Part shown: piece by piece, positions 16,920-44,360 of the stretch | How positions within the stretch are numbered: the first letter of the stretch is position 1 | Layout of the letters: the number at the start of each line of letters is the position of its first letter | From: Candidatus Marinacidobacterales bacterium | GTDB taxonomy: Bacteria; Acidobacteriota; Vicinamibacteria; Marinacidobacterales; DATDRI01 | DNA length: 64,000 bases | Assembly: GCA_965226495.1 (NCBI GenBank) | Contig: OZ245365.1 | Coordinates: forward strand, 1,184,001-1,248,000 | Direction of reading: 5' to 3' | Made by a program: the position numbers and the translations under genes | Notes under the pieces: model-generated | Databases searched by the model: none | Told to the model about the DNA's origin: nothing | What the model saw: only the letters and a program-made list of their open reading frames with translations

Positions 16920-17815
16920 ATGAGCCTACATCAAATCGGCATTCTAGCGCCCGGTCCAAGCCTGGGCCGGTTTCTCTTCTTCCAGCTCGCGCCCGGCGAC
17001 GACCCGCGCGCCGCGGTGAAAGCAATCCAGGGACTGGACGTGGACGAGGATATCGTTGTTGGGTTCGGAAGCTCACTCGTGCTCGCGACGGGTGGCCGTA
17101 TTGATGGCCTTCGGGCTTTCCCTAGCCTTACCGGTCCCGGGATCGAAGTTCCGTCCACGCAGGCTGCCGCTTGGTGTTGGCTCAGAGGCGAAGGCGACCG
17201 CGGTCAATTGGTTCACCGATCGCTCGTGCTCGAACAACTGCTGGAACCACTCATGTTGTCCAGCATCGTCGACAGTTTCAAGCACGACCCGACGCCGTCC
17301 GGACGGGAAGAGACCTATCCGGGTACGAAGACGGTACAGAGAATCCGACCGGCGACAAGGCAATCGCGGCCGCCATCGCGTCGGGAGGAGGCCCAGGGCT
17401 CGATGGCTCGAGCTTCGTCGCCGTGCAGACGTGGCAACACGATCTCGTCGGATTCCAGGCGATGACTCAGGACGAGCGGGACAACATCATTGGACGGCGC
17501 TTACGTGACAACGAGGAGATCGAGGACGCACCGGACTCCGCGCACGTCAAGAGAACCGCGCAAGAGAGTTTCGAGCCAGAGGCGTTTGTTGTCCGTCAAT
17601 CGATGCCATGGGCCGATCCCGACGGGGAAGGCCTCGTCTTCGTTTCATTCGGGCGGACACTCGATGCATTCGAGGCACAACTCAAGCGAATGGTTGGCCT
17701 CGAAGACGGCATCGTCGACGGTCTCTTCCGCTTCTCCCGCCCGGTATCAGGAGGGTACTACTGGTGCCCGCCGGTGGGTGATGGAAAGCTCGACTTGCGC
17801 GCACTAACGAGCTAG
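16920..17815 (+). pseudogene. Dyp-type peroxidase, frameshifted near 17305 (possible sequencing error)
   Basis: The N-half in one frame ends at SFKHDPTPSG. The C-half in another frame has GRDLSGYEDGTENP, SAHVKR and GYYWCPP. Confidence 0.8.
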
Positions 17816-17831
17816 CCGGAAGGGACGGGCC

Positions 17832-18464
17832 ATGGGCTATCGCGCGGTGGATGCCTACTACCGTCAACAGCTGTTCGACTTCTTCCGTACGTTTCAACTC
17901 CCCATCTACAGTGTCACCGTCGAGCTCGACATCACTGGCTTGAGAGATTTTACCCGCAAGCACGAACTCCCGATCTACCTCAACTCTTGCTACTTCTTTG
18001 CCCGAGCCATGCAGGAGATCGAAGACTTTCGCTATCGCCTCGTCGACGATCGGATCGTGCTCTACGACGAGCTTCAACTCGGGCTGACGGTGCCGGCTCC
18101 GGGTGGCATGTTTAGCTTCGCTCATTTCCGCAACGACCCCGATGTGTGGCGTTTCAACGAACGCGCCAAGCCCGTCCTGCAGCAAGCTAAGAGCGCTCTC
18201 CAGACGGGACCTCCTAACGACCACAACTACATCTTCTTCACCGCCGCACCCCAGCTGCGCTTCACCGGAGTCACGCACCCTGTGAAGAGTCCGATGGAGC
18301 AGGAGCCCAAAATTGCTTTCGGCCAGCATTCCGAACGCGACGGTCGTCTCTCCGTGCCGGTAGGTATGCAGGTCAATCACATCTTCATCGACGGCGCGGC
18401 GATGGGGAAGCTCGTCGAGCGCGTTCAGGAGTTCTACCGAGATCCGGCCGCCGCGCTGGGGTAG
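17832..18464 (+). CDS. CatA-like O-acetyltransferase
   Basis: YSVTVELDIT, EDFRYRL, PKIAFG and QVNHIFIDG (CAT active-site-like motif). Confidence 0.8.
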   Translation: MGYRAVDAYYRQQLFDFFRTFQLPIYSVTVELDITGLRDFTRKHELPIYLNSCYFFARAMQEIEDFRYRLVDDRIVLYDELQLGLTVPAPGGMFSFAHFRNDPDVWRFNERAKPVLQQAKSALQTGPPNDHNYIFFTAAPQLRFTGVTHPVKSPMEQEPKIAFGQHSERDGRLSVPVGMQVNHIFIDGAAMGKLVERVQEFYRDPAAALG

Positions 18465-21623: not shown

Positions 21624-22144
21624 TCCGCGTCGTGGTGACCGGCTCCGAATGCACCGGCAAGACGAAGCTCGCCGAGGCGATTGCCACACACTACGAGACC
21701 GTCTGGGTCCCGGAGTTCGCTCGCCAGTTCGTGATCGACAAAGGCGCCGCTCCCGTGTACGAAGATGTCGAGACCATCGCCCGCGGCCAAATCGCCCTAG
21801 AGGACCACAAAGCCGGCGAGGCATCCAGCCTACTTCTTCAAGATACCGATCTACTCAGCACCATCGTCTATAGCCGCCACTACTTCGGTGATTGCCCCCA
21901 CTGGATCGAGGAGGCTTTCGAGAAACGAGCCGCCGGCCTATACCTTCTAGCCGGCATTGACGTTCCCTGGGTACCCGAAGGGGAGCAACGCGACCGCGGA
22001 GACCGGCGCGAAGAGATGCACGAGCTATTCCGGAGCGCCCTGGTCGATCGCCGCCTGACCTATGCCGAGATAGGTGGGGCAAGGGGTGAGCGATTGGAAG
22101 CGGCGGTGTCGCGGATCGACCAGCTTCTTAGTCGAGGCCGCTGA
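21620..22144 (+). CDS. NadR-type ribosylnicotinamide-kinase-like P-loop protein
   Basis: TGSECTGKTKL, VPEFAR, QDTD and DVPWV..QRD motifs; ATGA overlap with pnuC. Confidence 0.85.
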   Translation: MIRVVVTGSECTGKTKLAEAIATHYETVWVPEFARQFVIDKGAAPVYEDVETIARGQIALEDHKAGEASSLLLQDTDLLSTIVYSRHYFGDCPHWIEEAFEKRAAGLYLLAGIDVPWVPEGEQRDRGDRREEMHELFRSALVDRRLTYAEIGGARGERLEAAVSRIDQLLSRGR

Positions 22145-22279
22145 ATACTTGCTAGGGCCGGACCGGGTCGCTATGCGGTCACTGAGTCCCGCCCAGCGAT
22201 GCTTGGTGTGGTCGAGGCAAAGCTGTCCGCTTAACGGCAGAGGAGTTGCGGGTGTCTCCCGATTACTCCCCAAGAACCC

Positions 22280-22789
22280 CTAACGCACGTCGTCAACTGT
22301 TAGGCGAGGGGCTTTGTCTCCCTCCGGGGCGTGGAAAACTCCTGACACGCTCACCTCAGTGTCGTTGTCCAGCTTCTCAAGCTCGTCCGAGGCCTTATCA
22401 CCCTCCAGGAGGATTAGCATATCCAGACTGGACTCATACCCGACTCGGAGCGCTAGGGCATTCTCCACCCTCTCCAATGTGCCCTTAACGTCAACCTTCA
22501 CTTTGCCCGCTGAGAAGCCAGCGGCCTCGACGGCCTTGGCAATCTGTGCCGGATCGAAAGAGTGGTCCGGTTCGGCAAGGATCACGGTCTCGCCCGTGTC
22601 GAGACTCATCACTTCAGCGTCCTGAACGCCATCCAGGCGTTCCAGAGCCGTCTCGGCCCCGTGTGCTCACAACCCTCACGTCATGCCCTGAATCCAGGTT
22701 CGGGCTTCTTGGACTTGGGCAAAGGCTACTCCCGACAATGCGTGGCAGAGAATAATTGTACTTAGTGATAGGAGCGTTCTCACTTTCAT
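22280..22789 (-). CDS. Secreted HMA-domain heavy-metal-binding protein with a UxxU motif (two in-frame TGA read as Sec), 169 aa
   Basis: GAGAGGA RBS; MKVRTLLSLSTIILCHALSGVAFA signal peptide; IQGMT-TGA-GL-TGA-AHGAETALERLDGV..IAKAVEAAGF, in frame with the listed 22280-22612 ORF. Confidence 0.85.
22624..22661 (-). promoter_or_regulatory. Two tandem SECIS-like hairpins
   Basis: CGGGGCC-GAGAC-GGCUCUG (22661-22643) and GAACGCC-UGGAU-GGCGUUC (22642-22624). Confidence 0.6.
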
Positions 22790-22810
22790 GTCGTTAGGTC
22801 CTCTCTTTTG

Positions 22811-23662
22811 CTAGTGAAGGTATCGAAACCCTGTTACGAACACCCAGTCTTTATTCAACCGATGACCGTTCAACTCCTGGTACACGGGGAGTTGGACAGA
22901 CAACTCCAATATCAAGTTGCGCCGCAAGAAGACTTCAACTCCCGGCGAGACAAAAACGGACTCGCCACCCGTTGCAAGGATCTCCGTCCCGTCACGGTTC
23001 GACCGGCTCTCAATGAAGGAGTTGACTTCCAACACGACGAATAGGTCGTTTCGCTCCGGGTACCGGAGGAGGCGATACATGACGGATGCGTCCAGCTGCA
23101 GAAGGTTCCCCGCCTTGAACCCGCTCTCTTTCGTCGTTGCTGTCCACTGGAAATCGGTGTTGACGAACCAACTAGTCGTTGCGTGGGTAAAAATAAGCCC
23201 CTGAAGAAGGTCCGTCGCTCCGGTCGAGAAACCCTCTTGGCCCCAAGGTACCTTCACTCCCAAGAAACCCGCCAGCCGAGAAAAACCACCAGGCCGGTTT
23301 TTCGCATAGAGCCCGTCGTACTGCACGAAAAACATTGGGTCCGCCAAGCTCGTGTCTCTTGGTTGGCCGCCCGGTGAGCCGCTGACTACGGGTACCATAG
23401 CGACCCACATGAGGTGGCGTGGTAGACCGAAGACGAACGTGTTTTCCCAGGCCATCACCGTGTGGTCTCGGTCACGCTCGGGGCGACCGTCCGTGACATC
23501 TAGCGACGGAGGAGATCGTTTCAGGACTCGCCAATCAGACCGATAGAGAAAGTTGCGGACGAACAAAGTTCTAGCCCCGGGGGAGTTGATTTGCCCAGAT
23601 AGGGGCAAGTGCTGAAGCAACAAAACGGACGCCAGGACAAATCGGAGACAGATTAGTCGCAC
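22811..23662 (-). CDS. Putative outer-membrane beta-barrel (MetA/phenol-degradation transporter-like)
   Basis: Signal peptide, alternating beta-strand pattern, GVKVPWG, TGGESVFVSPGV and a C-terminal GFRYLH. Confidence 0.6.
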   Translation of the reverse strand: MRLICLRFVLASVLLLQHLPLSGQINSPGARTLFVRNFLYRSDWRVLKRSPPSLDVTDGRPERDRDHTVMAWENTFVFGLPRHLMWVAMVPVVSGSPGGQPRDTSLADPMFFVQYDGLYAKNRPGGFSRLAGFLGVKVPWGQEGFSTGATDLLQGLIFTHATTSWFVNTDFQWTATTKESGFKAGNLLQLDASVMYRLLRYPERNDLFVVLEVNSFIESRSNRDGTEILATGGESVFVSPGVEVFLRRNLILELSVQLPVYQELNGHRLNKDWVFVTGFRYLH

Positions 23663-23787
23663 GGCGTAAGTCTAGTTACCCGGCCAGAGGTTACCCAAAC
23701 AACACCTACCCTCAGGGTTTCGCAACTCGCAAGCCGAGCGCCCAGCTTCCACGTGTGCATGGATGCGCGATTCGGCAGCGTCGGCGT

Positions 23788-23835
23788 CACACCGAAGCCG
23801 GCGGCGACGGCTCCGAAACCGCTCCATTTGGACAT
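23788..23835 (-). pseudogene. Possible 5' remnant of a MerT-like membrane transporter
   Basis: Strong AGGAG RBS right after the merR stop; MSKWSGFGAVAAGFG resembles the MerT first TM helix, but similarity ends before the expected CC pair. Confidence 0.35.
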
Positions 23836-23844
23836 GACATCTCC

Positions 23845-24463
23845 TCAGGCTTTCTCGTCGGATACGTCGGCAATCACCGGGCATCTCGAACCCTGGTCAA
23901 TCGCCTGAGCGCATTGGTCCCGGTAGTTAGACATTTGTCGATGGAAGCGCTTCATTTCTTTACCCTGCTGGGCGATCTCGACTATTTTCTTGTCGAGGAT
24001 GCCCAACACGCGACGGCAGCTCCCGGGGTTGTCCGGCCGGAGGCCCAGGAGTACCGAGATCTCGTCGAGAGCGAAACCAAAACCCTGCGCGCGTTTGATG
24101 AAACTCAGACGCTGCTCAGCTTTGGGCCCATAAAGGCGGAGAGCCTGATCTGGAACGCCGCTTCATTTCTTTACCCTGCTGGGCGATCTCGACTATTTTC
24201 TTGTCGAGGATGCCCAACACGCGAAGCTCCCGGGGTTGTCCGGCCGGAGGCCCAGGAGTACCGAGATCTCGTCCGAAACCAAAACCCTGCGCGCGTTTGA
24301 TGAAACTCAGACGCTGCTCAGCTTTGGGCCCATAAAGGCGGTAGCCTGATCTGGAACGCCGGCTGGGTTTGAGAATGCCGCGCCGCTCGTAGTACCGGAG
24401 GGTTTCGCGGTTCACACCGGCCCGCAGAGCTAATTCACCGATGAGAAGCGAGTCGTTCTTCAT
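23845..24463 (-). CDS. merR: Heavy-metal-responsive MerR-family regulator, disrupted by an internal ~200-bp tandem duplication
   Basis: IGELA..TLRYYERRG..GYRLY HTH. The reconstructed 138-aa protein has Cys82, Cys117 and Cys127 and ends RCPVIADVSDEKA*. Confidence 0.8.
23948..24361. repeat. Imperfect tandem duplication inside merR
   Basis: 23948-24158 matches 24159-24361; the right copy lacks 4-bp and 5-bp stretches, and the left copy has a 1-bp indel. Confidence 0.95.
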
Positions 24464-24481
24464 TCGATTGCTCTTGGCGCC

Positions 24482-24513
24482 ATTGTAAACCTTTGACTCG
24501 GGTACAGGGTCAA
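24482..24513 (-). promoter_or_regulatory. MerR-type long-spacer promoter/operator
   Basis: TTGACC-20 bp-TACAAT with an imperfect dyad ACCCTGTAC-CCGA-GTCAAAGGT. Confidence 0.8.
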
Positions 24514-24594
24514 GCCCTTTTTTACAACAATCGAGGCTTGCTAGCTATTTCTGGGGGGCGAATGTAAACGGTTCAAATTGGAGGGTTTGTCGCT

Positions 24595-24615
24595 TGGTGC
24601 CGAAAAGGGAGATTC
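24595..24615 (-). repeat. att-like copy 4 of the tRNA-Leu 3' end (most diverged)
   Basis: TGGTGCCGAAAAGGGAGATTC versus tRNA TGGTGCCGAAGGGGGGATTC. Confidence 0.75.
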
Positions 24616-24685
24616 GGCAAAGCTCCTCTGTGCTTTCCCGAGCTGGCAATCCACTCAAGAATTCCGTGAGTACCGGAACCGTAGG

Positions 24686-26197
24686 CTAGGCGCCGCTGGG
24701 TACCTGCAATTCCGGCATCGGTGCAGTGTGAAACAAGCGCCGGCAGGGCTTCGCTATCCACCTGGCCACCGTCGTCGCCCGGTTCACACGGGCACTGTCC
24801 GTCGCAATCCCTGTGCTGGCGTACATTTGCCGGTAGAGCTTGGAAAGCAAGACGAAGGCGAGACGTGCGCGCAACGTTGGAGTACATCGAGAGCGCTTCC
24901 AGACTGGGCCCAAGCTATAGAAACGATCCCAGACCGACTGCGTGCGCGACCTGATCTCCTCGGCCGACAGCACTGGATGGTCGCTGTAGATTTTCGGCCG
25001 AAGATTTTGAGGAATCAACCAGTGGCGGGTCAATGGGATACCCCCAATGCGCGTCGGGTCATCCTTCATCGAAGCTTCCCAATTGTTGAAATCTACCGTC
25101 CCCGGGAACGGGGTCATCATCACGAACTGCGCAAAAGTCAGATCGGCCTCCTGCGCGAGGGCCGCGGTAGCGTCGAAGGTCTCCGCGCGGTCCGTGGGCA
25201 GACCAAAGATGAACGAGCCCAAGACGTGCACTCCGTGCTTACGAAACTTGCGAAGCTGCAGCACTAAGTCTGCGCCCGAGGTGTTGAAATTCTTGTAGAC
25301 CGCTTTCAGCCCTTCGGCAGTAACAGACTCGACTCCGACGAGAGCTCCTTTGATGTTGGCTTTGCGCATGGCATCCAGAAAATCGGGATCGTCGGCGACT
25401 TCCATCGTGATCTGAGTAAAGAACACCATATTGGCGGGCAACTTGGCCATTTGCGCCATCAACTGGAACCGATCTTCGCGTATTGATTTGAGCTCTTGGA
25501 GCCGGTGCACATCGTTGCGACTTTCGGCAAGCCTCAAGTCCTCTAACGTAACCGGGTAGAAATTGTCGTCCGCCAGGGCGATAAATCGAAATCCGAGCCG
25601 TCGGAGCTCGACAATTTCTTCGATGACGGCGTCGGACGGGCGCTGGCGGGGTTTTTGGCCGTCCGTGCGCCAGACGGAGCAAAAAGAGCAATGCTTGGGG
25701 CATCCGCGCACCGTTTGAACGGAGGCCCACATATAGCTGTTGGGAGGAATCAGTTCCCAACGGGCGGGCTTGAACTGGTCGGCCTCGATCTTTCCCGCGT
25801 CGTACAATCTTTCGGGCTTTCCTTTCGCGCAGTCGGCCAGGACGGTGGCCCAAACGACGTCCCCGTCGCCCTTGACGACGCCGTTTGCGCCGCCCAAATC
25901 GAATGCTTCCTCGGGGTAAAGCGTGGCGTGAATGCCTCCATAGATCACATGGGCCCCTCGCTCCTGCGCCATGCGGCCGACCTCGTACCCGCGCAGCGCG
26001 TTGCCGGTATGGATGCTGATGCCGACCACATCGCCGTGCTGAATGTCGGAGGGGTCGATTTGCTCTAGCGTTTCGTCGACAATCACCGGGTCTCCGTACT
26101 CTCGGGGGGTCGCGCCGGCAAGTACGAAGAGCCATCGGGGGGTTATAACGCCTATTCCAAAGGAGATATGGCTGGGGTTGACTAGATGCACTCTCAT
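24686..26197 (-). CDS. B12-binding-domain radical SAM protein
   Basis: VIYGGIHAT, RGCPKHCSFC (CxxxCxxC), DDNF, GVES and TPFPGT motifs. Confidence 0.92.
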   Translation of the reverse strand: MRVHLVNPSHISFGIGVITPRWLFVLAGATPREYGDPVIVDETLEQIDPSDIQHGDVVGISIHTGNALRGYEVGRMAQERGAHVIYGGIHATLYPEEAFDLGGANGVVKGDGDVVWATVLADCAKGKPERLYDAGKIEADQFKPARWELIPPNSYMWASVQTVRGCPKHCSFCSVWRTDGQKPRQRPSDAVIEEIVELRRLGFRFIALADDNFYPVTLEDLRLAESRNDVHRLQELKSIREDRFQLMAQMAKLPANMVFFTQITMEVADDPDFLDAMRKANIKGALVGVESVTAEGLKAVYKNFNTSGADLVLQLRKFRKHGVHVLGSFIFGLPTDRAETFDATAALAQEADLTFAQFVMMTPFPGTVDFNNWEASMKDDPTRIGGIPLTRHWLIPQNLRPKIYSDHPVLSAEEIRSRTQSVWDRFYSLGPVWKRSRCTPTLRARLAFVLLSKLYRQMYASTGIATDSARVNRATTVARWIAKPCRRLFHTAPMPELQVPSGA

Positions 26198-26422
26198 TCA
26201 GATTTCACTCGTATCCTCCTGGGGGCTGCTGGCGCCTCCGACCGCCCGTATGTTTCGAATCGGACGAACCTGAGCGCCTAGTCTATCAATTTCAGGCTGT
26301 GAATGCGTCTTTTTCTTCATCGCGGGATCCGCGGCACTTTACCCTGAATCCTATCTGGAGCGCTAGATGTGAAGGCGATGAATTCCGAGCCGGTTGGCGA
26401 GAAAGGGTACCAAGGGAATTGT

Positions 26423-27319
26423 CTACTCGTTGTAGGCAGGCGCCTGCTTAACCTGTTCGAAGCGCGCCAGTTCGTGCTCGATCCAAAGCTCCGCACCGGT
26501 CTCCTCGAGGAACTTCTCGATACGCTCCATCGAAGCGAGAGTCGCTTCCGCGTCGAAGTTGAACGCGGGGACGCGCCGCTCCCGGCGATTGAGCTGGAAG
26601 ATAAATAGATCGCCGGATAGGACGACAGGCCCTGTTTTTTCGAGGTCGACGAAAAGGACCTGATGGCCGGGAGTGTGGCCGGGTGCCGAGAGGATCCGGA
26701 CGCGTCCATCGCCGAAGACGTCGTGCTCGCCGTCGAGGATCTGGCGGTCGGCGTCGTGCAGGCCTTGGTAGGTTGTGGGATCAAAACCAACTACTGAAAC
26801 TTCATCAGCGAAGGCGGCATCGTATTCCGCTCGTTGGATGAGGAGCGTCGCGCCTTCGATCTCGTTCGCGACCCCGACGTGGTCGGGGTGCATGTGGGAG
26901 AACGCCATGTAGTCGACCGAGGTGTAATCGAGGCCGATCTCGGCGAGCTGCTCTCCGAGAGTTCTGTCGAGACGCATCTGCATTCCCCCCGCGTCCTGCC
27001 AGCTCTCCGCGTCGGCGATTTCCGAAGCAAGGCCGCCATCCCAGAGCAGCCGGCCTCGCTCGTGCTCGATGACGTAGCACGGCACGACGAGCTCGCGCAC
27101 GTCGGTTTCCGCGCTCGTGAAGCCGAAGTCGAGCGCGTCGAACGTCTCGTCATCGAAGCGCATGCGCCCGCAGTCGAAAACGTAGAGCTTCAGGGACGCG
27201 GGTCCCTCGGTTTCAGTTTGGGTTTCGGCGGCCGGTTCTCGCTCGGTGTCGGCAGCGCAACTCGCAAGCGCGAGCACCAGCGATAGGGATAGCGTCGATA
27301 ATCGCATCTTGAGCGGCAT
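26423..27319 (-). CDS. N-acyl-homoserine-lactonase-family MBL-fold hydrolase, lipoprotein
   Basis: SHMHPDHVG, PGHTPGHQ and LSGD motifs; LASC lipobox. Confidence 0.85.
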   Translation of the reverse strand: MPLKMRLSTLSLSLVLALASCAADTEREPAAETQTETEGPASLKLYVFDCGRMRFDDETFDALDFGFTSAETDVRELVVPCYVIEHERGRLLWDGGLASEIADAESWQDAGGMQMRLDRTLGEQLAEIGLDYTSVDYMAFSHMHPDHVGVANEIEGATLLIQRAEYDAAFADEVSVVGFDPTTYQGLHDADRQILDGEHDVFGDGRVRILSAPGHTPGHQVLFVDLEKTGPVVLSGDLFIFQLNRRERRVPAFNFDAEATLASMERIEKFLEETGAELWIEHELARFEQVKQAPAYNE

Positions 27320-27449
27320 TTTAAACCTCAAGTGTTCGAGCGCGGCCAATTTCTTTTGTATCAACAACATACGGTCTCGAGAAAAGGCTGGTGCGTTGCA
27401 AAAATTCAAGTAATCCATTTAATTGCAATAGGTTACAAGCCATCGAAAC

Positions 27450-27478
27450 TTGACAAATCAATAACATTTACCTAATAT
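27450..27478 (+). promoter_or_regulatory. Sigma70-like promoter for the HNH gene
   Basis: TTGACA-17 bp-TAATAT in an AT-rich intergenic region. Confidence 0.55.
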
Positions 27479-27548
27479 ACACCTACCAGGTTTTGGGGAA
27501 TTCAATAGCCCTTCTTGCCTTAAGCCCATGGAAACAGGGAGGTTTCGA

Positions 27549-28823
27549 ATGCAAGCGTTACTTACTGACTCGATACAAGAGTCATCCAATACACATTCCG
27601 GGAGCGAGGATCTTTCAATCGCCGACCTTGACCAACGGCTCGAGCAAGCGGTCCAAGAAAATGAGCGATCCGAACGTCTCATTTGCGACTATCTCTTGGC
27701 GATGGTCGAACGTCGGGGGTACGAAAAGTTCGGCTTCGCCGACATCTACTACTACGCGGAAGGGCGGTTCGGCTTTTCAGCCCGCAAGACCCGTTACCTG
27801 CTCCGCCTCTCCCAGCAGCTCCGGAAGCTTCCCCGGATCAAAGAAGCTCTCGGCGAGGGCCGCCTTGGCTGGACGAAGGCCAGTCGTATCGCACGAGTCG
27901 CGACCATCGACGACGAGTCCATGTGGCTCGATTCCGCCCTATCCTTATCTGTTCGAGAGCTCGACCAAAAGCTCAACGAGCAAAGGGACGCCATGGGAGT
28001 GAAAATCCGCGCGTGGCTAACCCAGGAACAAGCTTCGGTGTGGGACCAGGCACTCGAAGTCTGCCGTCGCTTGAGCGGGGAGGATCTGGATGTCGGCCGC
28101 TGCCTCGAGTACATCGCCGGAGATTTCCTCGCCACTTATGCCTACCTCACGTACCGGAAAGAGGGGGACGAGGGCTGTGAAGGAACGACCGTCAAGGAGC
28201 GGCACCAAGTAGAGGACGGACCTTCCGACGAGGAGGCCGCGGCGGTAGAGCTGAAGATATGTCCGGACAACGAGGACCTTCCTGCTCCAATGACTCCCTC
28301 CGAGTACGGCAAGACGTGGCGATACGTGCTGGAGCGTGACGCCTACCGCTGTCAGTACCCGGACTGCGGCGTGCGGAGTGAGCTCCAAGTGCATCACATC
28401 GTGTTTCGGAGCCGCAGTGGTAAGAAAGGTCGGCGCCGAAGCAACTCGCCTCAAAATCTGGTGACGCTATGCGTCTTCCACCACCGGACGGTTCACGCCG
28501 GAACGATCGGAGTTATGGGGCAGGCGCCCAATGAGCTCGAGTGGCGCCGCCCGGTGCTGATGGAGAACGCCCTCCCTCCGCGAGATAGCGCGCGCGGCGA
28601 TTATGGTGGCGAGCTCGCTCGAGAGCCTGGACCAGTTTATGGCCGGCGGCACACCGCGGTTCTCGTTTGGCAAACGTTTTCCAAAGCCAAATCTGTGTCA
28701 AAAGGTAGCAGACCGCCTCGAAAACGTTATCCAAAGTCCGATCTGTATCGACAGGTAGCGGCTTCGGCGATCGGGACCGCCGCGCGTGCGCGTGCCACCG
28801 GGCGAACCGAAACGGGTTCTTGA
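27549..28823 (+). CDS. HNH endonuclease with DUF222-like helical N-terminal region
   Basis: VLERDAYRCQYPDC..LQVHHIVFRS..NLVTLCVFHH; N-term LPRIKEALGEGRLGWTKA. Confidence 0.85.
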   Translation: MQALLTDSIQESSNTHSGSEDLSIADLDQRLEQAVQENERSERLICDYLLAMVERRGYEKFGFADIYYYAEGRFGFSARKTRYLLRLSQQLRKLPRIKEALGEGRLGWTKASRIARVATIDDESMWLDSALSLSVRELDQKLNEQRDAMGVKIRAWLTQEQASVWDQALEVCRRLSGEDLDVGRCLEYIAGDFLATYAYLTYRKEGDEGCEGTTVKERHQVEDGPSDEEAAAVELKICPDNEDLPAPMTPSEYGKTWRYVLERDAYRCQYPDCGVRSELQVHHIVFRSRSGKKGRRRSNSPQNLVTLCVFHHRTVHAGTIGVMGQAPNELEWRRPVLMENALPPRDSARGDYGGELAREPGPVYGRRHTAVLVWQTFSKAKSVSKGSRPPRKRYPKSDLYRQVAASAIGTAARARATGRTETGS

Positions 28824-28838
28824 GGCTAGGTTGGACTT

Positions 28839-28858
28839 TGGTGCCGAAGAGGAGATTC
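28839..28858 (-). repeat. att-like copy 3 of the tRNA-Leu 3' end
   Basis: TGGTGCCGAAGAGGAGATTC, 2 mismatches to the tRNA. Confidence 0.85.
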
Positions 28859-28866
28859 TGGAAAAA

Positions 28867-31305
28867 CTAGTGCCCTCTAGTGCCGCCCTGTCCGTGTAGT
28901 GTTTTCTCATTCGCTCTCGATTCTCGAGAATGAGCAGCCTGCCTGGTTCGGGCATCGAGCGCCGCCTTCACTCGCCCGTGCGTAAACGGCACCTCTCTGA
29001 TACGGGCACCGGTAGCGTCGAAGATGGCGTTTCCGATGGCTGCGGCGGCGAGCGTGATGGTGGTCTCGCCGGCACCCAACGCCTCCACGTCAGCGCGATC
29101 GATGATGACCGTTTCCACCTGGGGCACGTCGAAGCCGACCGGAAGGCTTCGGTACGTTCCCCAGTCCACCGAGGTCACCTTCTTCTCGTCCCACGTGACC
29201 TCTTCGAGGAGCGCGCGGCTCATTCCCTGGAGCGTGCCCCCTTCGATCTGATTCCGCAGCCCATCCGGGTTCGAGACCGGGCCGCAGTCGACACCGGCTA
29301 CCAGACGCTTCACTGCTACGGATCCAGTGTCCTGATCCACCTCGACGTGCGCCACCAACGCGCAATACCCGTTGTCGCCTTCATACAGCACGCAGGCCAT
29401 CCCGCGACCCGTCGCAACCCCACTCCGCGAGACGCCGCGCTTCGGCGAGGGACGAGGATCCCAATTGGCCTTCCGCGCCACCGCCCGCACGATCTCGATC
29501 ATCCGCTCGTCTCTCACATGATCCAGTCGGAAGGCCATCGGATCGACTCTCGCCTGCGCCGCCGCCTCATCCATGATGGACTCGTGCGCAAACGTATTCT
29601 GGAGCCGTGACGGAGATCTGAGGGGCCCGGTGAAGAATGCCGATTTGACGTTGTGTATCAGCACCCGCTCGCTCTTGACGGTTCCGGTGCCGCCACAACG
29701 GCCGCCGACACACCCCGCAACGTACGAAGGCGCGGCGTTGCTGCCGTTTCTGTAAGTGCGGGGATCCGATGCCGGGGTTCGCGGAGTGAAGGCCGCCGGC
29801 TCGAAACCGGCTAGAAAACCAGTGATCACATTCCCAGGAGTTCCGCTGCGTGGTCGGCTCCCCAAGACCGGGAACCAGGCCTCGTAGTCCCACGCGAGAA
29901 TCCGTCCCTCGGCGTCGAGTCCTATGCTCTGATCGATGACGTAGGCGTATCCGAAGTTCTCCCACGCCATTTCGTCCTGTCGCGAGAGCTGCACCCGGAC
30001 CGGTCGACCCACCGCTTGCGACAGCAGCGCGGCGTCGTAGGAGACCGTATCGGCCCCGTTCAGTCCGTAGCAGCCGGAACCCATCCTGAAGATCACGCGC
30101 ACCTCTTCCGGGGAAACGCCGAGGATCATGGCCACCGTCTGCTTCAACGGATGCACCGCCTGGGTAGCCGACCAAATCGTGGCCTTCCTGCCCTGCACAT
30201 CGGCAACCGCGCAGGAGCTGCCCACCGATCCGTGCATCTGATAGGGATGGCGATAGGTGGCGCTGACGGTGATCGCCGCTCCCGCGAGCGTGGCGTCCAC
30301 ATCTTTGGAATCCACGACCAGCCTGTCGCTGGTCGGGTTCTGATGTCGCAGGTAGTCGTAGAAGTCGCGATGGCTCGGCAGCTCGACGCCCGGGCTCCAT
30401 GTACAGCTCAGTTTGTCGGCGGCCTGGATGGCCTGCCAGGGCTTGTCGGCGACCACTCCGACGAAGTCGTTCTTGACGACGACCTTCACCAGACCGGGCA
30501 CGTCTTGCACGGAACGCTCGTTGACGCTCATGAGCTTCGCGCCAACCACCGGCGGTCTGACCACTCGGCCATGCAGCATGCCGGGGACACTCACATTGTG
30601 CACGAACTCGAAGCGGCCGGTGACCAGCTCTGGGATCTCCGACCGCGGTACTGGCTTTCCCAGCACGCGCCACTCGCTCGGGTGCCGGCGTTTGGCGCGG
30701 CCGTCAAGCCGAAGGGCGAACGTCTTCCCCCCAATCAATTGCCCATACTCCGCGCGCGCCGTTGGATCGGTCGTTACCTGGATCACGCCATTTTCGACGG
30801 CCAGCTTCTCGACGGGCACCTGGAGGCGTGCCGCCGCCATACGGAACAATTCTTCGCGGGCAGTCGCCGCGGCCTGGGCCAGGTTGGTGTTGTTGAAATT
30901 GGCAGGGTGTGATTGGCTACCGGACGTGGTGCCCTGATCGGGAGTTCGTGCAGTATCGCACTGAATCAGCGTGACGCGATCGATAGGTATGGCCAGTTCT
31001 TCGGCGATCAGTTGACTTTGTGCGGTGTAGAGACCCTGTCCAAGCTCACACTTGCCGGTGTAGGCGGTCACCCGTCCCTGCGGGTCAATAGCAATCCACG
31101 AGTCGAGCTGGTCTCCCGGCACTCCCGAATCCTGGGCCGCTGCGAGCCCTGAAGCGAGAATCCTTCCCGCCGCGCTGAAGCCGACGATCAAGCAACCGGC
31201 TCCCTTCAGCCAATCCCGGCGGGACAATTGAAGCCCGTCCAAGGCGGCACCGGCGTCCGGGGTCAAAGACTTCGCATCCACCGCTCCACCCGGCTGCTTC
31301 CTCAA
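28867..31305 (-). CDS. Xanthine-dehydrogenase-family molybdopterin-binding subunit (IorB/nicotinate dehydrogenase B-like), Tat signal
   Basis: SRRDWLK, GKCELGQG, QIEGGTLQGMS and GAGE..AAAIGNAIFDATG motifs; start codon uncertain (31305 or 31281). Confidence 0.9.
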   Translation of the reverse strand: MRKQPGGAVDAKSLTPDAGAALDGLQLSRRDWLKGAGCLIVGFSAAGRILASGLAAAQDSGVPGDQLDSWIAIDPQGRVTAYTGKCELGQGLYTAQSQLIAEELAIPIDRVTLIQCDTARTPDQGTTSGSQSHPANFNNTNLAQAAATAREELFRMAAARLQVPVEKLAVENGVIQVTTDPTARAEYGQLIGGKTFALRLDGRAKRRHPSEWRVLGKPVPRSEIPELVTGRFEFVHNVSVPGMLHGRVVRPPVVGAKLMSVNERSVQDVPGLVKVVVKNDFVGVVADKPWQAIQAADKLSCTWSPGVELPSHRDFYDYLRHQNPTSDRLVVDSKDVDATLAGAAITVSATYRHPYQMHGSVGSSCAVADVQGRKATIWSATQAVHPLKQTVAMILGVSPEEVRVIFRMGSGCYGLNGADTVSYDAALLSQAVGRPVRVQLSRQDEMAWENFGYAYVIDQSIGLDAEGRILAWDYEAWFPVLGSRPRSGTPGNVITGFLAGFEPAAFTPRTPASDPRTYRNGSNAAPSYVAGCVGGRCGGTGTVKSERVLIHNVKSAFFTGPLRSPSRLQNTFAHESIMDEAAAQARVDPMAFRLDHVRDERMIEIVRAVARKANWDPRPSPKRGVSRSGVATGRGMACVLYEGDNGYCALVAHVEVDQDTGSVAVKRLVAGVDCGPVSNPDGLRNQIEGGTLQGMSRALLEEVTWDEKKVTSVDWGTYRSLPVGFDVPQVETVIIDRADVEALGAGETTITLAAAAIGNAIFDATGARIREVPFTHGRVKAALDARTRQAAHSRESRANEKTLHGQGGTRGH

Positions 31306-31769
31306 CCCGCCACCTCTCGTGCATATCGCTTGATGGCTCGAAGCATCCGAACGTGTGCAAAGCAACGGCACAGAACCGTCGACAGGGCCTGCTGCATCTG
31401 TTCGTCGCTCGCCTTCGGGTTCTCATCAAGGAGAGCTTTTGCGGTCAAGATCACGCCGCTGAGACAGAATCCGCATTGCGTCGCCTGCTCTTCGATGAAG
31501 ATTCGTTGAATCGGGTGCGGGCTCTGCGCAGTACCCAAGCCTTCTAGTGTGGTTATGTCCGCACCATCCATTGTCTCCACGGGTGTGACGCAGGCGCGGA
31601 TTGCCCGACCTCCCGCGATCACCGTGCAGGCTCCGCACTGTGCCAGCCCACAGCCGAACTTCGGTCCACGTAGCTCGAGGTCGTCACTAAGGATGTAGAG
31701 GAGCGGTGTAGAGGGGTCCACATCCAGAGAGTGTGAGCTACCGTTGACCGTCAGGGTAATAGCGCTCAT
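31302..31769 (-). CDS. [2Fe-2S] subunit (IorA/CoxS-like)
   Basis: KFGCGLAQCGACTV, QCGFC and LCRC motifs. Confidence 0.95.
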   Translation of the reverse strand: MSAITLTVNGSSHSLDVDPSTPLLYILSDDLELRGPKFGCGLAQCGACTVIAGGRAIRACVTPVETMDGADITTLEGLGTAQSPHPIQRIFIEEQATQCGFCLSGVILTAKALLDENPKASDEQMQQALSTVLCRCFAHVRMLRAIKRYAREVAG

Positions 31770-31914
31770 ATCGTCCTGCCTCGTGTGTCAGGACCCCGCT
31801 CCACTCCCCGAGTGACGAGTGAAAGCGTTGTCGCGAGATTTTAAGACAGCTGGGAAGCTTCAAGCAACGGATTTTCTCATGCCCAATGACCTTGCAGCTC
31901 GGGAAGGGCCGTGG

Positions 31915-32056
31915 TGGTGCCGAAGGGGAGATTCTACCAGGACGTTATCGCCTCGTGCCGCCTTTCACGCCTGGCGTTGTTTCTCAGTGGCTTACGCTGA
32001 GACGGAGCCCGCCTAGTCGTGCCTCATATCACGTCGTGGTCGCCCAGTTCCGCACA
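31915..32056 (-). repeat. att-like copy 2 plus conserved element end
   Basis: TGGTGCCGAAGGGGAGATTC (1 mismatch); 31945-31989 is identical to 34159-34203. Confidence 0.9.
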
Positions 32057-32172
32057 TTCGTCGAGGCGACAGAATTCCCAGATGCAGAGGCTCTCGGAAG
32101 GTCACCCCGACCTCCCGGTCGGCGGCGTGTCATGGCCGGCCGCACTTGCGTACTGCCGATGGCCCGAGCGCA

Positions 32173-33960
32173 TCAGGGATCGAAACGCGTGACCGCCCAC
32201 CCGGCCTTGTTTTCGGGCAGAAATTCTCCGTCATCGCTGCTAACCTCCGCGTCGATGGCGTCGGTCAGCTTTTGATTCATCGCAAGCAACAGTTCGCCGT
32301 TTGCCCTTCTATCGACTGCCAGGTTTCGCATCTCGTCCGGATCCGCCTCGAGATCGTACAACTCGACGTCGTTGTAATCGAATATCTGCTCGATCGTTCC
32401 CGGAAGGTTGTGTTGTTGCGGCGAGAAATAGCGGCTGTAGCGATAACGGCCGTCCGTGATGCTGCGTATCGCTCCCCGTTTGGTCAGGTCCAGTTTCAGG
32501 CCGAGGCTTGCGACATCCTGCCCGCGCGACTTGGCGTCATATACCTGCTGCATGAAGTCGGCGTCCTGGTACAACCACATATTGAAGTTATAGAGCGCGC
32601 CGCCCCTGACCGCATTCGCGCCGGCGGATTCAGGCGATGCCAACAGGCCACTCAGGTCGTGCCCTCGCAGTTTTGGCGCCATCGCCTGGCGCTGGTCCTC
32701 GCCGACGCCCGCAAGCGCTAGGATGGTCGGTGTGATATCGAGATGTGACGTGAGGGCCGGGCATTCTTTTCCAGCGCTTCCGGCATGGCCAGGGTGCCGC
32801 ACCACCAGCGGCACGTGAAGCTGCTCCTTGTATGCCGTAGCGCCCTTTCCATGCATTTGGTGGGCTCCCGCCAACTCGCCGTGGTCCGATGTCATGACGA
32901 CGATGGTGTTGTCCGCCAGCCCAAGCTCGTCCAGCTCCTGGAGGATTCGTTCCACATGCCGATCGCAGTCGGCGATGCAGTTCAAGTAGTAGTCCTGCAA
33001 TCGCTTCCAGCGTGCGTCCTCATTTGGAAACTGGCCGACCAGCGTACTGCGCGCAAACTGGTACTCATAGTGCGCTCGCGGTCGGCCATCATAATCCCAA
33101 GCCTCATTGCGGCTTTCGGGCAGAGCCATGTTCCAGCTTCGCTGGTAGATGGAATGCTCCGGTGCGCGATTGAGGGGCATCAGGTGGCGGGAATCCTGCA
33201 CGGGTCGCGCGCCCGGCGCGTCGGTGTTGTAAAACATCACGTCGTGCGGATTGACGAGGTTCAGCGCCAGGAACCAAGGTTTTCCCTGTTGCTCGAGCTG
33301 GGGTGCCTCCGCCCTCAGCCAGCGCACCGCGGTGGACGTGGTGAACTCATCCGTCCTGTAGCCGCCCATTGTCATACCGATGATGTCGCCTACGCCGACA
33401 TAGTCCTCGAATCCGTACTCCTGCATCACGGCGTTCAGCGTCGCCATGTTGACGTCGGGCGCCTGCTCAACCTCGATATCTTCGAGCGCTTTGACGAAAT
33501 GGCACTTGCCGAGGTATGCAGGCCAAAAGCCTGCGTCCCGCAGGTAATTGCCGACGGTCGGGATGTCTGACGACAGCTCACTCGACCAAGGTAAGCCCAA
33601 GTTGTCGAACACCTTCGTGTGCTGGATATGCTGGCCCGTATAGATCACCGAGCGCGAGGAACTGCAGACCGAAGTGGCGATCTGGTGGTTCGTGAAGATC
33701 ACGCCTTCGCGCTGCAGGCGTTCGCGGCCTGGCAGTGAATAGTCGTCCGGCAAAGTTGCCGGATCGAAATACCGTTCCTGATCCGTCAGTATGAAAAGAA
33801 TGTTGTAAGGTTGGCTGGCCTCCGCGCCCGCTTGTGGAGCGAAGCTGGTACCGCCCTCGACCATATGAGGGCCCAGTGCCAGTGCGCCACCGGCAGCGCC
33901 TGTTTTGATGAATTCTCGCCGACTGATTCCGAAGCCAGGTTTTTTGTTGCCTTTCGCCAT
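32173..33960 (-). CDS. Tat-exported sulfatase-family hydrolase
   Basis: SRREFIK, NILFILTDQ, CSSSRSVIYTG, GKCH and TSDHG motifs. Confidence 0.9.
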   Translation of the reverse strand: MAKGNKKPGFGISRREFIKTGAAGGALALGPHMVEGGTSFAPQAGAEASQPYNILFILTDQERYFDPATLPDDYSLPGRERLQREGVIFTNHQIATSVCSSSRSVIYTGQHIQHTKVFDNLGLPWSSELSSDIPTVGNYLRDAGFWPAYLGKCHFVKALEDIEVEQAPDVNMATLNAVMQEYGFEDYVGVGDIIGMTMGGYRTDEFTTSTAVRWLRAEAPQLEQQGKPWFLALNLVNPHDVMFYNTDAPGARPVQDSRHLMPLNRAPEHSIYQRSWNMALPESRNEAWDYDGRPRAHYEYQFARSTLVGQFPNEDARWKRLQDYYLNCIADCDRHVERILQELDELGLADNTIVVMTSDHGELAGAHQMHGKGATAYKEQLHVPLVVRHPGHAGSAGKECPALTSHLDITPTILALAGVGEDQRQAMAPKLRGHDLSGLLASPESAGANAVRGGALYNFNMWLYQDADFMQQVYDAKSRGQDVASLGLKLDLTKRGAIRSITDGRYRYSRYFSPQQHNLPGTIEQIFDYNDVELYDLEADPDEMRNLAVDRRANGELLLAMNQKLTDAIDAEVSSDDGEFLPENKAGWAVTRFDP

Positions 33961-34124
33961 TCTCGCCTCCTCCTCGTTCAGGAGTAAACCATGCCTCAGG
34001 ACGCGAGCGGATTCAAGTCGGTTGATTCACGGCAGGTCGGTGGAAACAAAAAATCAATTTGGAGACGTTTTGGAGACGGCAACCGGTGCGAAAGTGAATG
34101 CTAAGGACTAGAAGGACTTAGTTA

Positions 34125-34270
34125 CTGTTGGTGCCGAAGGGGGGATTCTGCCAGGAGTTTATCGCCTCGTGCCGCCTTTCACGCCTGGCGTTGTTTCTCA
34201 GTGCCTTACGCGGAGCCTGCGCTCGTGTGGCATTGCCTCATATCGTCTCGTGGTGCCAAGTTCGTGAACA
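34125..34270 (-). repeat. att-like copy 1 plus conserved element end
   Basis: 34125-34148 is identical over 24 bp to 36883-36906. Confidence 0.92.
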
Positions 34271-34889
34271 TGGTGTGAACAAGGAGAATTCTGGAAGCGG
34301 TCTAACCGTCTCCTGTTGGGGAGTTCGTTAGCTATTTGTTAGCTGTTTGGCCCTCTATCATCGCCAGCCGGTGTATATCGGCATCCCGCGTGATCTGCCG
34401 CCGTAGCAAACACTGGCAGTCCCGAGAACGGGCAGCAGCAGAACCAGGGCTGCATTGATTGGTGACTGCATACAGAGAGGCATCGCCGAATCGCTGACCT
34501 ACTGATACGCTATCAGTCGTTCGAGGCCCTGGCCGCGCCACCGCTGGCGCATATCGGGCTCTACTTGACGCCAAACTGATTGGCGCGACGAGTGGCCTGC
34601 CTCGCTCGTCACCAAGAGGTGACCGGAGCTCTTTTTCTTCTTTGCGTCTTGGAAACAATTGTCAAGAGTTGTGGATCAGAAGGGGCGTCTCTTGCCCCGG
34701 AAGGTGTCATGATGTCGCCTTCCTCCCGGTGAGGGAGGCCGTGGGATCAGGATCTCAGGCCGCTCGAGGATCTCGGCGTGTCACGTTTTCCGGTGGAACT
34801 TGTCAGGCCGCCACGGACACGTATAATCACCGCCCTACCCACAGGAAGTCTGCTGAGCAGATTTCCCATAGCTAAGGAGGAAGCTTGCT

Positions 34890-36617
34890 ATGCCGAAGCG
34901 CACGTTCCTTGCCACTATGCTGGCCCTGATTATCGCCTTCGGCTGTGCGGCCCCACAGCCTGGCGGCGAAGTCGCTGACACCGTCTACACCAACGGCAAG
35001 ATCTACACCGTCAACGAAGCCCAGCCCTGGGCTGAGGCCCTGGCGGTGAAGGACGGCAGGCTCCTTGTCGTCGGCTCCAGCGCCGACGTCGAGGCCGTGA
35101 CCGGCGACGGTACGGAGGTTGTCGATCTGGGCGGCAGGTTCGTGATGCCCGGTATCAACGACCTGCATAATCACGGGATCGACATCTCGACCACAGCCAT
35201 GGATCCCGACGCGTTGGCGATTGCCGAGGAGGCGAAAGCGAGTCCGGAAGCCATCGTCGCTGCCGTCAAGGAATTCGCGGATGCCCATCCCGATCTGCCG
35301 TTGATCTACGCGGAGGACTTTCCAGACGGCATGTTCCCCGGCAACAACGGACCCAAGGAACTGCTGGACGAAGCGAGCCGAGATCGCCCGATCATGATCC
35401 TGAGCTCCGGCGGTCACGCATTCTGGGGGAACTCCAAGGCGTTCGAGGCCGCCGGGATCACCGCCGATACGCCGGACCCCGAGTACGGCGTCATCGGCCG
35501 AAAGCCCGGATCGCGTGAGCCCATCGGTGGCGTGCACGAGAGCGCCATGCAGCTCTTATGGGCCCTGAAGAACAGGCCGAGCAAGGACTCGATCGCAACC
35601 GGGATCAGGCATCACGTGGCGCGAATCAATGGACTCGGCGTGACCGCCGTGCGCATCGCCGGCATCACGCAGGACCACTTGGACATGACGCTGGCGGCGG
35701 ATGAGGCTGGGGAGCTCAATGCGTACCACAGCTTGGCCTTTCACTGGCGTACCTCCTACATTGCGCAGAGAGACCCGGACCTGGACCTGATTCGCCAACA
35801 GATCCTCGATTCAAAGAACATCGCCACCGAGAACGTATCCGCCGGCGCGCTGAAGTACTACGCCGACGGGGCGCCGGCGAGCAAGACCTCCTTCTTGCTC
35901 GAGGACTACGAGAATGATCCCGGGAATCGCAGCCAGCTACAGATGGAACCGGACCTGTTCCTTGAGGAGTTCGCGTTCTGGACCGAGAACGGCATCACGA
36001 CGATGACACACGTCACCGGCGATGCGGCCGCTCGGGCTGTTCTCGAGGCGGTCGAGGCCGCGCAGGAAAGGCACGGCAAGAATGGCGTGCGCCACCACAT
36101 GAGCCACACGGTGATGGTGGATCCTTCCGATCTGGGTCGCGTGAAGCCGTTGGACATGGTGGTCGACGTGTCGCCGACCGTCGCCGCGCCGATGGCGTTT
36201 CACGATGCCTACAAGCATCACTACGGTGACCGCCACGAGCAGTTCTTCCCGTCCCGTGGACTGATCGATGCCGGGGCGAAGTTCATGGTGGCCTCGGACT
36301 TCCCGGTCGGCCCGGACAATCCCTGGTCCAACATCGAGGTCTGGACCACTCGCATGAACCCCTGGGGAGAGGCGCCGGGCACGTTGGGGGCCCACTCCGC
36401 GATCAGCCTGGAAGAGGCGCTCGAGGCGGCGACCCTGACGGGCGCATACGGGCTCTACATGGAAGACGAGTTCGGCTCCCTGGAAGCCGGCAAGCGGGCG
36501 ACCTTCATCGTGCTGAACCACAACCTGTTCGAGATCCCACCGGCGGACCTCAGCGAAACCGAGGTCCTGCAGACATACTTCAACGGTCGCCTGGTCCACG
36601 ACGCGAACCGCAACTGA
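34890..36617 (+). CDS. Amidohydrolase-3 (YtcJ-like) lipoprotein
   Basis: [26 protein letters not shown] and GSLEAGKRA motifs; AFGC lipobox. Confidence 0.9.
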
Positions 36618-36886
36618 GCCACGTCGGCGAGACGAGCCTTCGACCCGCAGCGTCTTCACTCGTTGGGGAGTGCAAGGGCGACGCGCGTGACATCTTTCCT
36701 GGCGAAAGGTGCCACCGAGAGCGTTTGTCTCGGCCACCTGTGCAAACTAATGGTAGGCGGTTTTCACTGCCCGCGGGAGAGACGATCTCCACCAGCGTCG
36801 ACACGCAGCACACCTCACCGAAAGCGGCCAGTAGAAACCTTGAACGGGTTGCCGGTTCGTTGCTGAGCTGGATGTCCGGAGTCTGT

Positions 36887-36971
36887 TGGTGCCGAAGGGG
36901 GGATTCGAACCCCCACGAGTTGCCCCATACGCCCCTCAAGCGCACGTGTCTGCCAGTTCCACCACTTCGGC
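36887..36971 (-). tRNA. tRNA-Leu(GAG)
   Basis: 85-nt cloverleaf GCCGAAG..CTTCGGC-ACCA, anticodon loop TTGAGGG, long variable arm, GTTCGAATC; canonical position after secG. Confidence 0.97.
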
Positions 36972-37032
36972 AACCTGGATCTTCGGTCGCCCCGAGCGGG
37001 ACGCCGAAAGATTTGAATTATAGCAGAAGCAG

Positions 37033-41721: not shown

Positions 41722-41915
41722 CCTAGAAGTCGGGGCACTCTTCGATGGGAAGAGTCCGGTTTTGAGGGCAGGTTTCATCAAGCTCCTTGTTCTTCCCTGG
41801 AAGAGTGAGGAGCTTTTTCTATTTGCCTCCTCGCTCTCCCAGCCTGCCGCGAGACCCCACTCCGCTCGTCCGGATCTTCAACGGCGCCTCGGGCGCCAGA
41901 TTGGGAGGTCTACTG

Positions 41916-44342: not shown

Positions 44343-44360
44343 CCGGGACCGGAGAAGAAA

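Follow-up and report, generated by a model that had tools for sequence, protein, structure and literature searches.

Gene modules between displaced tRNA-Leu 3' ends in a marine acidobacterial genome: a probable stack of integrative elements in which no recombinase gene is recognisable

How does a tRNA gene come to be followed by four displaced copies of its own 3' end, with a small packet of metabolic genes in each interval and no recognisable recombinase gene? This question is raised by a 64-kb window (positions 1-64,000, in which all feature coordinates are given) of a genome from Candidatus Marinacidobacterales (assembly GCA_965226495.1, contig OZ245365.1, positions 1,184,001 to 1,248,000). 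An earlier inspection of the DNA letters, called here the sequence-only reading, had described the copies and proposed that the modules between them are minimal mobile islets. The analysis reported here indicates that the array probably arose as site-specific integrative elements accreted in tandem at the 3' end of tRNA-Leu(GAG), and that it is now in a state like that of cis-mobilizable elements (CIMEs). The sole tRNA gene of the window and its displaced 3'-end copies are the following.

36887..36971, minus strand: tRNA-Leu(GAG), intact, identified by ARAGORN (as tRNA-Leu(gag)) and by the Rfam tRNA model (49 bits); directly after pgk-tpiA-secG, with its 3' end at 36887
34125..34148, minus strand: copy 1, identical to 20/20 nucleotides (nt) of the tRNA 3' end and to the 4 nt past CCA
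31915..31934, minus strand: copy 2, with 1 mismatch to the tRNA 3' end
28839..28858, minus strand: copy 3, with 2 mismatches to the tRNA 3' end
24595..24615, minus strand: copy 4, 21 nt long, with 1 inserted base and 2 substitutions (edit distance 3)

When the last 20 nt of the tRNA are searched for in the form that they have on the plus strand, they recur at 34129-34148 (0 mismatches), 31915-31934 (1) and 28839-28858 (2). No match at up to 3 mismatches was found in 100 dinucleotide-preserving shuffles. Copy 4 is absent from this search because of its 1-nt insertion, and it was recovered by an edit-distance scan. The latter returned five sites at a distance of 3 or less, all on the plus strand, with distances of 3, 2, 1, 0 and 0 in the direction of the tRNA, and 60 shuffles of the window searched on both strands gave 1 such match in total. 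The repeats are real and lie well past chance. In all four copies, agreement with the tRNA sequence stops at one common point in the T loop, and every copy ends at or after CCA. Both scans and the shuffles thus confirm the four same-orientation recurrences, with their common T-loop end, that the sequence-only reading had listed. The spacings between successive cores are 2758, 2214, 3076 and 4244 nt from the tRNA outward. Beyond copy 4, no older core copy was found in 22157-24594 in the array orientation at an edit distance of up to 5.

The differences between the cores are not spread evenly. The first 10 nt of the plus-strand repeat, which comprise the acceptor 3' strand and ACCA, are invariant in 5/5 sites, and the changes are confined to the arm-side half, which is the 3' strand of the T stem. 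The substitutions are all G-to-A on the plus strand, one of them being common to copies 2, 3 and 4, and copy 4 lies at distance 2 from copy 3 but at distance 3 from the tRNA. A rough estimate of the probability that the shared G-to-A arose by independent decay is ~0.001-0.02. The shared change and the invariant acceptor/CCA half are not expected from independent decay. The rise in divergence with distance from the tRNA that had been described earlier is therefore borne out as a series of edit distances (0, 1, 2, 3), but not as simple decay. On one reading, the crossover falls in the invariant acceptor/CCA part and each element brings the T-stem half as part of its own arm, in which case the gradient along the cores would reflect divergence of the elements and not age alone. 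Hot-spot decay within the G run is an alternative for the core changes.

The description of the repeats as 20 nt long holds for the core. Copies 1 and 2 share far more than this, as blastn aligns 139-nt repeats at 31912-32050 and 34126-34263 with 84% identity (E 4e-37), and the tRNA and copy 1 have 4 more nt past CCA in common. The additional sequence forms an arm of ~115 nt that lies solely on the module-internal side of the core.

34149-34263: arm 1, from the blastn comparison with arm 2
31935-32050: arm 2, from the blastn comparison with arm 1

The first 60 nt after the core are identical at 56/60 positions. Both arms are complete, and their similarity fades at about the same point, ~115 nt in. 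In the standard geometry of integration, B-O-P' ... P-O-B', the conserved arm sits where the P arm of an element's attP would end up. By this shared arm, modules 1 and 2 are shown to belong to a single element family. When the sequence beside copy 3 is compared with arm 1 in register, 27/60 positions agree, against a null of 15.5 +/- 3.4 (seven shifts tried); as a free local alignment, this likeness is not significant (p 0.12-0.30). Copy 4 shows no resemblance to the arm. Unit 3 is at best a distant relative of the family, and unit 4 cannot be assigned. Similarity is greatest between the two units closest to the tRNA, and the order is polar. No further copy of the arm was detected by blastn in the window or in 80 related loci, and the plasmid and phage collections gave no arm match.

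Possible folded forms of the core and arm were also considered. Six folds on both strands, evaluated as attC-like hairpins, gave z scores of -1.54 to +0.93 relative to shuffles. A structured RNA in this region was rejected, since the folds were no better than those of shuffles and Rfam matched the tRNA alone. The asymmetric core derived from the tRNA 3' end does not suggest a Xer dif/pdif site either, which has 28 bp with XerC and XerD half-sites.

A scan of genome contigs anchored on TpiA gave three relatives, all labelled Candidatus Marinacidobacterales, with TpiA identities to the window of 93% (L001), 91% (L002) and 68% (L003). In all three, the same tRNA-Leu follows secG and its 20-nt 3' end is identical. 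L001 is collinear with the window at 85-87% identity up to the last base of the tRNA, where the blastn alignments stop at 36887/36886. The tRNA is followed there by 1.4 kb of unrelated DNA with fragments of a PD-(D/E)XK/ATPase-type gene, and collinearity is regained from window position 22156. The segment that varies relative to L001 is 22157-36886, or 14.7 kb. The sequence-only reading had let the array end at 24595, which is too short, as the variable region continues for 2.4 kb past copy 4. Synteny with L002 is also broken at the tRNA end, and a small open reading frame (ORF), an IS256-type transposase gene and a partial sulfatase gene follow. What remains of this sulfatase gene is the 3' 943 nt, with 83.9% identity to the gene of module 2 (backbone blocks, 84.9-86.9%); the transposase gene removes its first ~280 codons. 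In L003, the tRNA is followed by genes for a kinase-type protein and an IS240-type transposase, and after these come tryptophan genes.

The four genomes part from one another at the first base past the tRNA, and the content of the locus is therefore not fixed. The comparison of the secG-tRNA-Leu locus across relatives had been proposed by the sequence-only reading, and the different contents of L001-L003 speak against a fixed set of genes. Copies that all start in the T loop, and synteny that breaks exactly where the tRNA ends, are, as judged from the sequences, the signature of integrase-type insertion. The integration-type geometry noted earlier, with all fragments downstream of the tRNA, in its orientation and beginning in the T loop, is upheld as well. 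Insertion sequences are found in the same hotspot of two relatives, at 12157-14595 in L002 (IS256-type) and at 13753-14292 in L003 (IS240-type DDE transposase). L002 also has a DUF3604 gene that is broken into two parts.

Among 36 fetched loci with tRNA-Leu(gag), only one other has a downstream repeat of the tRNA 3' end. It belongs to L015, an unrelated deltaproteobacterial metagenome-assembled genome (MAG), where a 6.9-kb islet (11194-18157) follows secG-tRNA-Leu(gag) and ends at a 21-nt repeat that matches the tRNA 3' end perfectly and begins in the T loop. The islet carries genes for a glucose/sorbosone dehydrogenase, a zincin-like protein and a PEBP-family protein, and 0/8 of its ORFs of at least 90 amino acids (aa) match recombinase families.

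The units between the cores, and the remainder of the variable region beyond copy 4, contain the following features.

34149..36886: module 1 (2.7 kb), with arm, 626-nt gap, promoter-like site and amidohydrolase gene
34264-34889: region of 626 nt without recognisable gene (no family match in the intergenic frames)
34800-34827: promoter-like site TTGTCA-16-TATAAT, upstream of the amidohydrolase gene
34890-36617, plus strand: Amidohydrolase_3 gene (Pfam PF07969, E 8e-66)
31935..34128: module 2 (2.2 kb), with arm, formylglycine-generating-enzyme (FGE) gene remnant and sulfatase gene
~32103-32168, plus strand: FGE gene remnant (PF03781, GldK and PDB matches)
32173-33960, minus strand: sulfatase gene with a twin-arginine translocation (TAT) signal (Pfam Sulfatase, E 6e-40)
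28859..31914: module 3 (3.1 kb), with the molybdenum hydroxylase pair
28867-31371, minus strand: molybdenum hydroxylase large subunit (Pfam, NCBIfam)
31302-31769, minus strand: 2Fe-2S small subunit of molybdenum hydroxylase (Pfam, NCBIfam)
24616..28838: module 4 (4.2 kb), with radical SAM, lactonase-like and HNH genes
24686-26197, minus strand: B12-binding radical SAM gene (family profile matches)
26423-27418, minus strand: gene for a lactonase-like protein with metallo-beta-lactamase fold (family profile matches)
27450-27478: promoter-like site before the HNH gene
27528-28823, plus strand: HNH endonuclease gene, which ends 15 nt before copy 3
22157..24594: remainder of the variable region; no repeat that would close it is recognisable
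22280-22612, minus strand: HMA-like ORF
22811-23662, minus strand: outer-membrane MetA-like ORF
~23848-24544, minus strand: MerR-family gene, broken, with an internal tandem duplication

The cargo is as the sequence-only reading had named it, and the Pfam and NCBIfam matches agree on the amidohydrolase, the sulfatase, the molybdenum hydroxylase pair and the group of radical SAM, lactonase and HNH genes. Coding sequence occupies most of each unit, so that the units are compact. The genes lie on both strands, and promoter-like sites precede two of them, those for the amidohydrolase and the HNH protein. Pairwise repeat and blastn comparisons revealed no sequence shared among the modules besides core and arm.

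The 431-aa HNH protein was considered as an RNA-guided nuclease of the IscB type, and this candidate was rejected, as the NCBIfam match covers the HNH segment alone and reaches 40 bits against a cut-off of 175. The N-terminal part of the protein has 29% identity (E 3e-11) to a fragment annotated as DUF222, and ~60 metagenome homologues are found at 50-79% identity. By these similarities, the protein is an ordinary DUF222-type HNH endonuclease, neither IscB nor a recombinase. A metagenome protein of 722 aa (P0015) that is 70% identical to the amidohydrolase of module 1 has a truncated DUF222 domain fused in front, and this domain is homologous to the N terminus of the HNH protein (E 3e-11). The fusion suggests that HNH genes of this kind may travel together with the cargo genes. 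The radical SAM enzyme encoded in module 4 contains a B12-binding domain, and a cobalamin cluster is present in the same window.

No integrase, serine recombinase, excisionase or transposase family was found among the 18 + 39 ORFs that span the whole 64 kb. A comparison of the 65 intergenic stop-to-stop frames of 22100-36990 with Pfam at E-values up to 1 revealed no recombinase remnants, and 22 proteins compared with PHROGs gave no match to a recombinase family. The sole PHROGs label of the 'integration' category is a weak transposase-HTH match (E 2e-4) on the helix-turn-helix of the MerR protein, and it was dismissed as an integrase remnant. The description of the array as integrase-free is thus correct for the array and for the window in the ORF, intergenic-frame and PHROGs scans. 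Family scans of the array units also found no recombination, conjugation or mobilisation genes.

Several features show that at least some of the units have been trimmed. Between the stop codon of the sulfatase gene and arm 2 lies a piece of an FGE gene, which matches Pfam PF03781 with an E-value of 2e-4 among 65 frames and the NCBIfam GldK family with an E-value of 4e-4. When compared with PDB chains, the same motif is found in PorK/GldK-type proteins (E 0.012) and in FGE/SUMF1 (E 0.27-0.31). Formylglycine-generating enzymes are maturation partners of sulfatases. The remnant keeps ~20-50 codons of a domain of ~255 positions, and a piece this short indicates that module 2 has lost DNA on both sides of the remnant. 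In module 3, the family alignments of the molybdenum hydroxylase large subunit stop near residue 805/834, and the last ~29 codons (28867-28954, minus strand) reach the flank of copy 3. The present C terminus of the large subunit may be a by-product of the junction. The MerR-family gene contains an internal tandem duplication of ~205 nt (23948-24341, minus strand) with blocks of 66, 49 and 68 nt that are each 100% identical; between these blocks, 4 nt and 5 nt are missing from the second copy, and the parts for the helix-turn-helix and for dimerisation are in different frames. This duplication could be real and recent, or it could be an assembly or polishing error.

The FGE remnant, the 626-nt gap, the tail of the large subunit and the broken MerR gene favour units that were formerly larger. 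For the same reasons, the proposal that the modules are clean minimal islets is not supported, and the evidence favours decayed larger islands, which the sequence-only reading had itself put forward as the alternative. It had further considered that the modules might be deletion remnants carrying integrase fragments. The signs of deletion are there, in module 2 with its FGE remnant and in the MerR gene, but no integrase or transfer-gene remnant was found alongside.

The preferred explanation of the array is a succession of integrations, and we read their sequence from the geometry of the repeats. Each arriving element would recombine with the intact tRNA gene. The attachment site that it brings would rebuild the 3' end of the tRNA, and the previous 3' end would be pushed downstream together with the older units. 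The units would since have lost any recombinase gene, or would never have had one, and trimming would leave one operon or a few genes between the scars of the attachment sites. Such a state is termed a cis-mobilizable element in streptococci and Dehalococcoides. By inference, the units could remain substrates for a matching recombinase encoded elsewhere.

A number of observations weigh against this explanation. As no recombinase gene or fragment was found, integration has to be read from the scars alone. No displaced fragment was found in 3/3 relatives within ~9.3 kb downstream of the tRNA, at an edit distance of up to 5 and in the array orientation. In L002, homology to the sulfatase gene does not extend past the stop codon, and neither arm nor fragment follows. 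Units 3 and 4 have little or no similarity to the arm. At their tRNA-proximal ends, the units are alike over 4 nt at most (all pairs p >= 0.078), and a family of elements with a two-armed attP should show some similarity there. The composition is not foreign either, a property that is frequent but not obligatory in tRNA islands. When 9 genes of the variable region were compared with 34 core genes of the window, the GC content was like that of the flanks, and 8/9 genes had a GC content at third codon positions (GC3) inside the core range, the amidohydrolase gene lying slightly above it. The codon-usage distance was also inside the core range for 8/9 genes, and above it for the small HMA-like ORF. 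The identities of the amidohydrolase homologues are graded, with values of 94, 91, 91, 85, 84 and 84, then 75-64%, and a drop to 43%. From these sequence properties, the cargo looks native to the lineage or long resident, and not imported from afar.

A stronger claim would be that the units are purpose-built minimal non-autonomous cassettes, each composed of arm, core and operon, that never had an integrase and are moved today in trans, with tRNA-Leu acting as a polar gene-capture platform. We consider this unlikely. It would account for compact and mostly coding units, for two whole arms that fade at about the same point and for the lack of integrase fragments in the intergenic frames and the PHROGs scan. 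The invariant 10-nt acceptor/ACCA half resembles a site still under selection, and L015 provides a second integrase-free islet at tRNA-Leu(gag). However, that the units were formerly larger or different is shown by the FGE remnant and by 626 nt of DNA that could not be assigned. Cassettes that move today are also at odds with an arm that has no further copy in the window, the 80 related loci or the plasmid and phage collections, with a sulfatase gene that occurs without the arm in L002, and with older cores that bear an inserted base and substitutions. More doubtful still is the wider proposition that secG-tRNA-Leu(GAG) of marine Acidobacteria is a gene-capture site, at which integrase-free single-operon cassettes are stacked in polar order by a recombinase acting in trans. 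The one-sided arm of ~115 nt and the 10-11-nt acceptor/CCA core alone would then be the determinant of mobility.

The repeats might instead have arisen without any site-specific integration, by local duplication of a short stretch with the tRNA 3' end and adjoining sequence, and genes would later have been shuffled in between. Unequal recombination, replication slippage or repair after a cut by a nuclease such as the HNH protein could have produced them. The G-to-A change shared by copies 2-4 and the closeness of copy 4 to copy 3 suggest descent from copy to copy, the HNH gene ends only 15 nt from copy 3, and a DUF222-type fragment directly precedes the amidohydrolase homologue in the metagenome protein. 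This origin is nevertheless very improbable, because the modules have only core and arm in common and no duplicated block exceeds 139 nt, and because every copy starts in the T loop and synteny breaks exactly at the tRNA end. We know of no HNH-driven process that yields such a geometry, which also counts against it. It is scarcely credible that an assembly artefact, or chance in metagenome-derived sequence, produced the array. The retrieved relatives are all MAGs, so that the window may be one too, and the perfect MerR duplication with its small indels could be an assembly or polishing error. Yet the copies differ from one another and have unique, intact genes around them, the shuffles exclude chance, and the flanks are collinear with two independent assemblies.

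Among known systems, the ssrA islands of Dehalococcoides and the tycheposon islands of Prochlorococcus come nearest as precedents. Pavlovic et al. in 2004 reportedly described CIMEs as elements that are flanked by attL and attR, lack recombination or transfer genes and occur in tandem at one site. In the present array, att-type cores flank each unit, and recombination and mobilisation genes were not found. CIMEs were defined beside a living integrative and conjugative element (ICE) that gives the integrase in cis, and this window holds no such partner. The likeness concerns sequence features, namely att-like scars and gene content.

The ssrA islands of Dehalococcoides, in the parts of the report that describe them, are tandem islands bounded by a 20-bp repeat from the 3' end of ssrA, with insertion at the T loop and a conserved motif beside the repeat (PMC3146451). 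The array shares with them, as so described, the tandem units behind a small RNA gene, the 20-nt repeats, the T-loop start and the conserved sequence on the island side (PMC3146451). The same parts of the report mention 15 islands without an integration module, which the authors discuss as cis-mobilizable elements or else as remnants that became fixed (McMurdie et al. 2011, PMC3146451). There the target is tmRNA and here it is tRNA-Leu; 16 of the Dehalococcoides units are described there as keeping a serine-recombinase module (DsiB), whereas none was found here in the units or in the relatives (PMC3146451). Relative to the islands covered in that text, the units here are smaller (2.2-4.2 kb) and native-like in composition (PMC3146451).

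In the islands of Prochlorococcus that harbour tycheposons, successive integrations displace older elements inward and leave partial tRNAs scattered, according to the sections available from that preprint (Hackl et al., bioRxiv 10.1101/2020.12.28.424599). Growth proximal to the tRNA, partial tRNAs between elements, degenerate remnants and a marine host are common to those islands, as portrayed in these sections, and to the array (bioRxiv 10.1101/2020.12.28.424599). The same source attributes nutrient-use cargo modules to the tycheposon islands, and cargo modules are present here too (bioRxiv 10.1101/2020.12.28.424599). Tycheposons are defined in the available text by a recombinase of their own and a module for replication or packaging, neither of which was found in the array by the Pfam and PHROGs scans (bioRxiv 10.1101/2020.12.28.424599).

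The Islander survey, in the portion of the article consulted, takes a regenerated tRNA gene and a displaced 3' fragment in the same orientation as the marks of an island's ends, with the T-stem region as a common class of site (PMC4383910). This geometry is seen here in the intact tRNA gene, the four same-strand fragments downstream of it and the break of synteny exactly at the tRNA (PMC4383910). Islander, as outlined in that portion, needs an integrase in each unit, which the units here lack, and the array would therefore be filtered out (PMC4383910). Arrays of three or more are given there as 4 among 3919 islands, which places an array with four fragments at the long end of the catalogue (PMC4383910).

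The array had also been called polar and integron-like. Like an integron, it is a polar stack of small units that each end in a recombination-type site, with the newest beside the site of entry, and the polar order is borne out by the two nearest units being the most alike. The likeness to integrons goes no further, as the 64 kb contain no intI or attI neighbour, no hairpin-folding attC sites were found, and the genes are not promoterless co-oriented cassettes but occur in both orientations, two of them with promoter-like sites.

The remaining genes of the window do not alter this picture. A TonB-dependent receptor gene followed by a cluster for cobalamin salvage and uptake (41787-51323) is ordinary in content, the cluster comprising genes for an ABC ATPase, a FecCD permease, an adenosyltransferase, CobQ, CobS, a phosphatase and CobU. 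The core part of the window also contains a Phd/YefM-PIN toxin-antitoxin pair (52643-53355) and a HerA/DUF87-type ATPase of 838 aa that has weak terminase-like matches in PHROGs (58332-60848), both unrelated to the array.

Scars of repeated site-specific insertion are already known, and what is unusual here is solely the absence of any recombinase gene. The array provides a clean case, in a little-studied marine acidobacterial lineage, of a tRNA gene that gathers small metabolic gene packets, and it indicates that the enzyme behind such stacks can vanish from them without trace. The array would be missed by island finders for which every unit needs an integrase. The arm and core together form a specific probe for the missing recombinase and for movement of units without an integrase. 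If the secG-tRNA-Leu(GAG) locus did act as a gene-capture site, it would be a tRNA-based functional analogue of the integron, invisible to the same finders. If the units do move, flexible metabolic genes would be exchanged in these bacteria as single-operon units at a fixed site.

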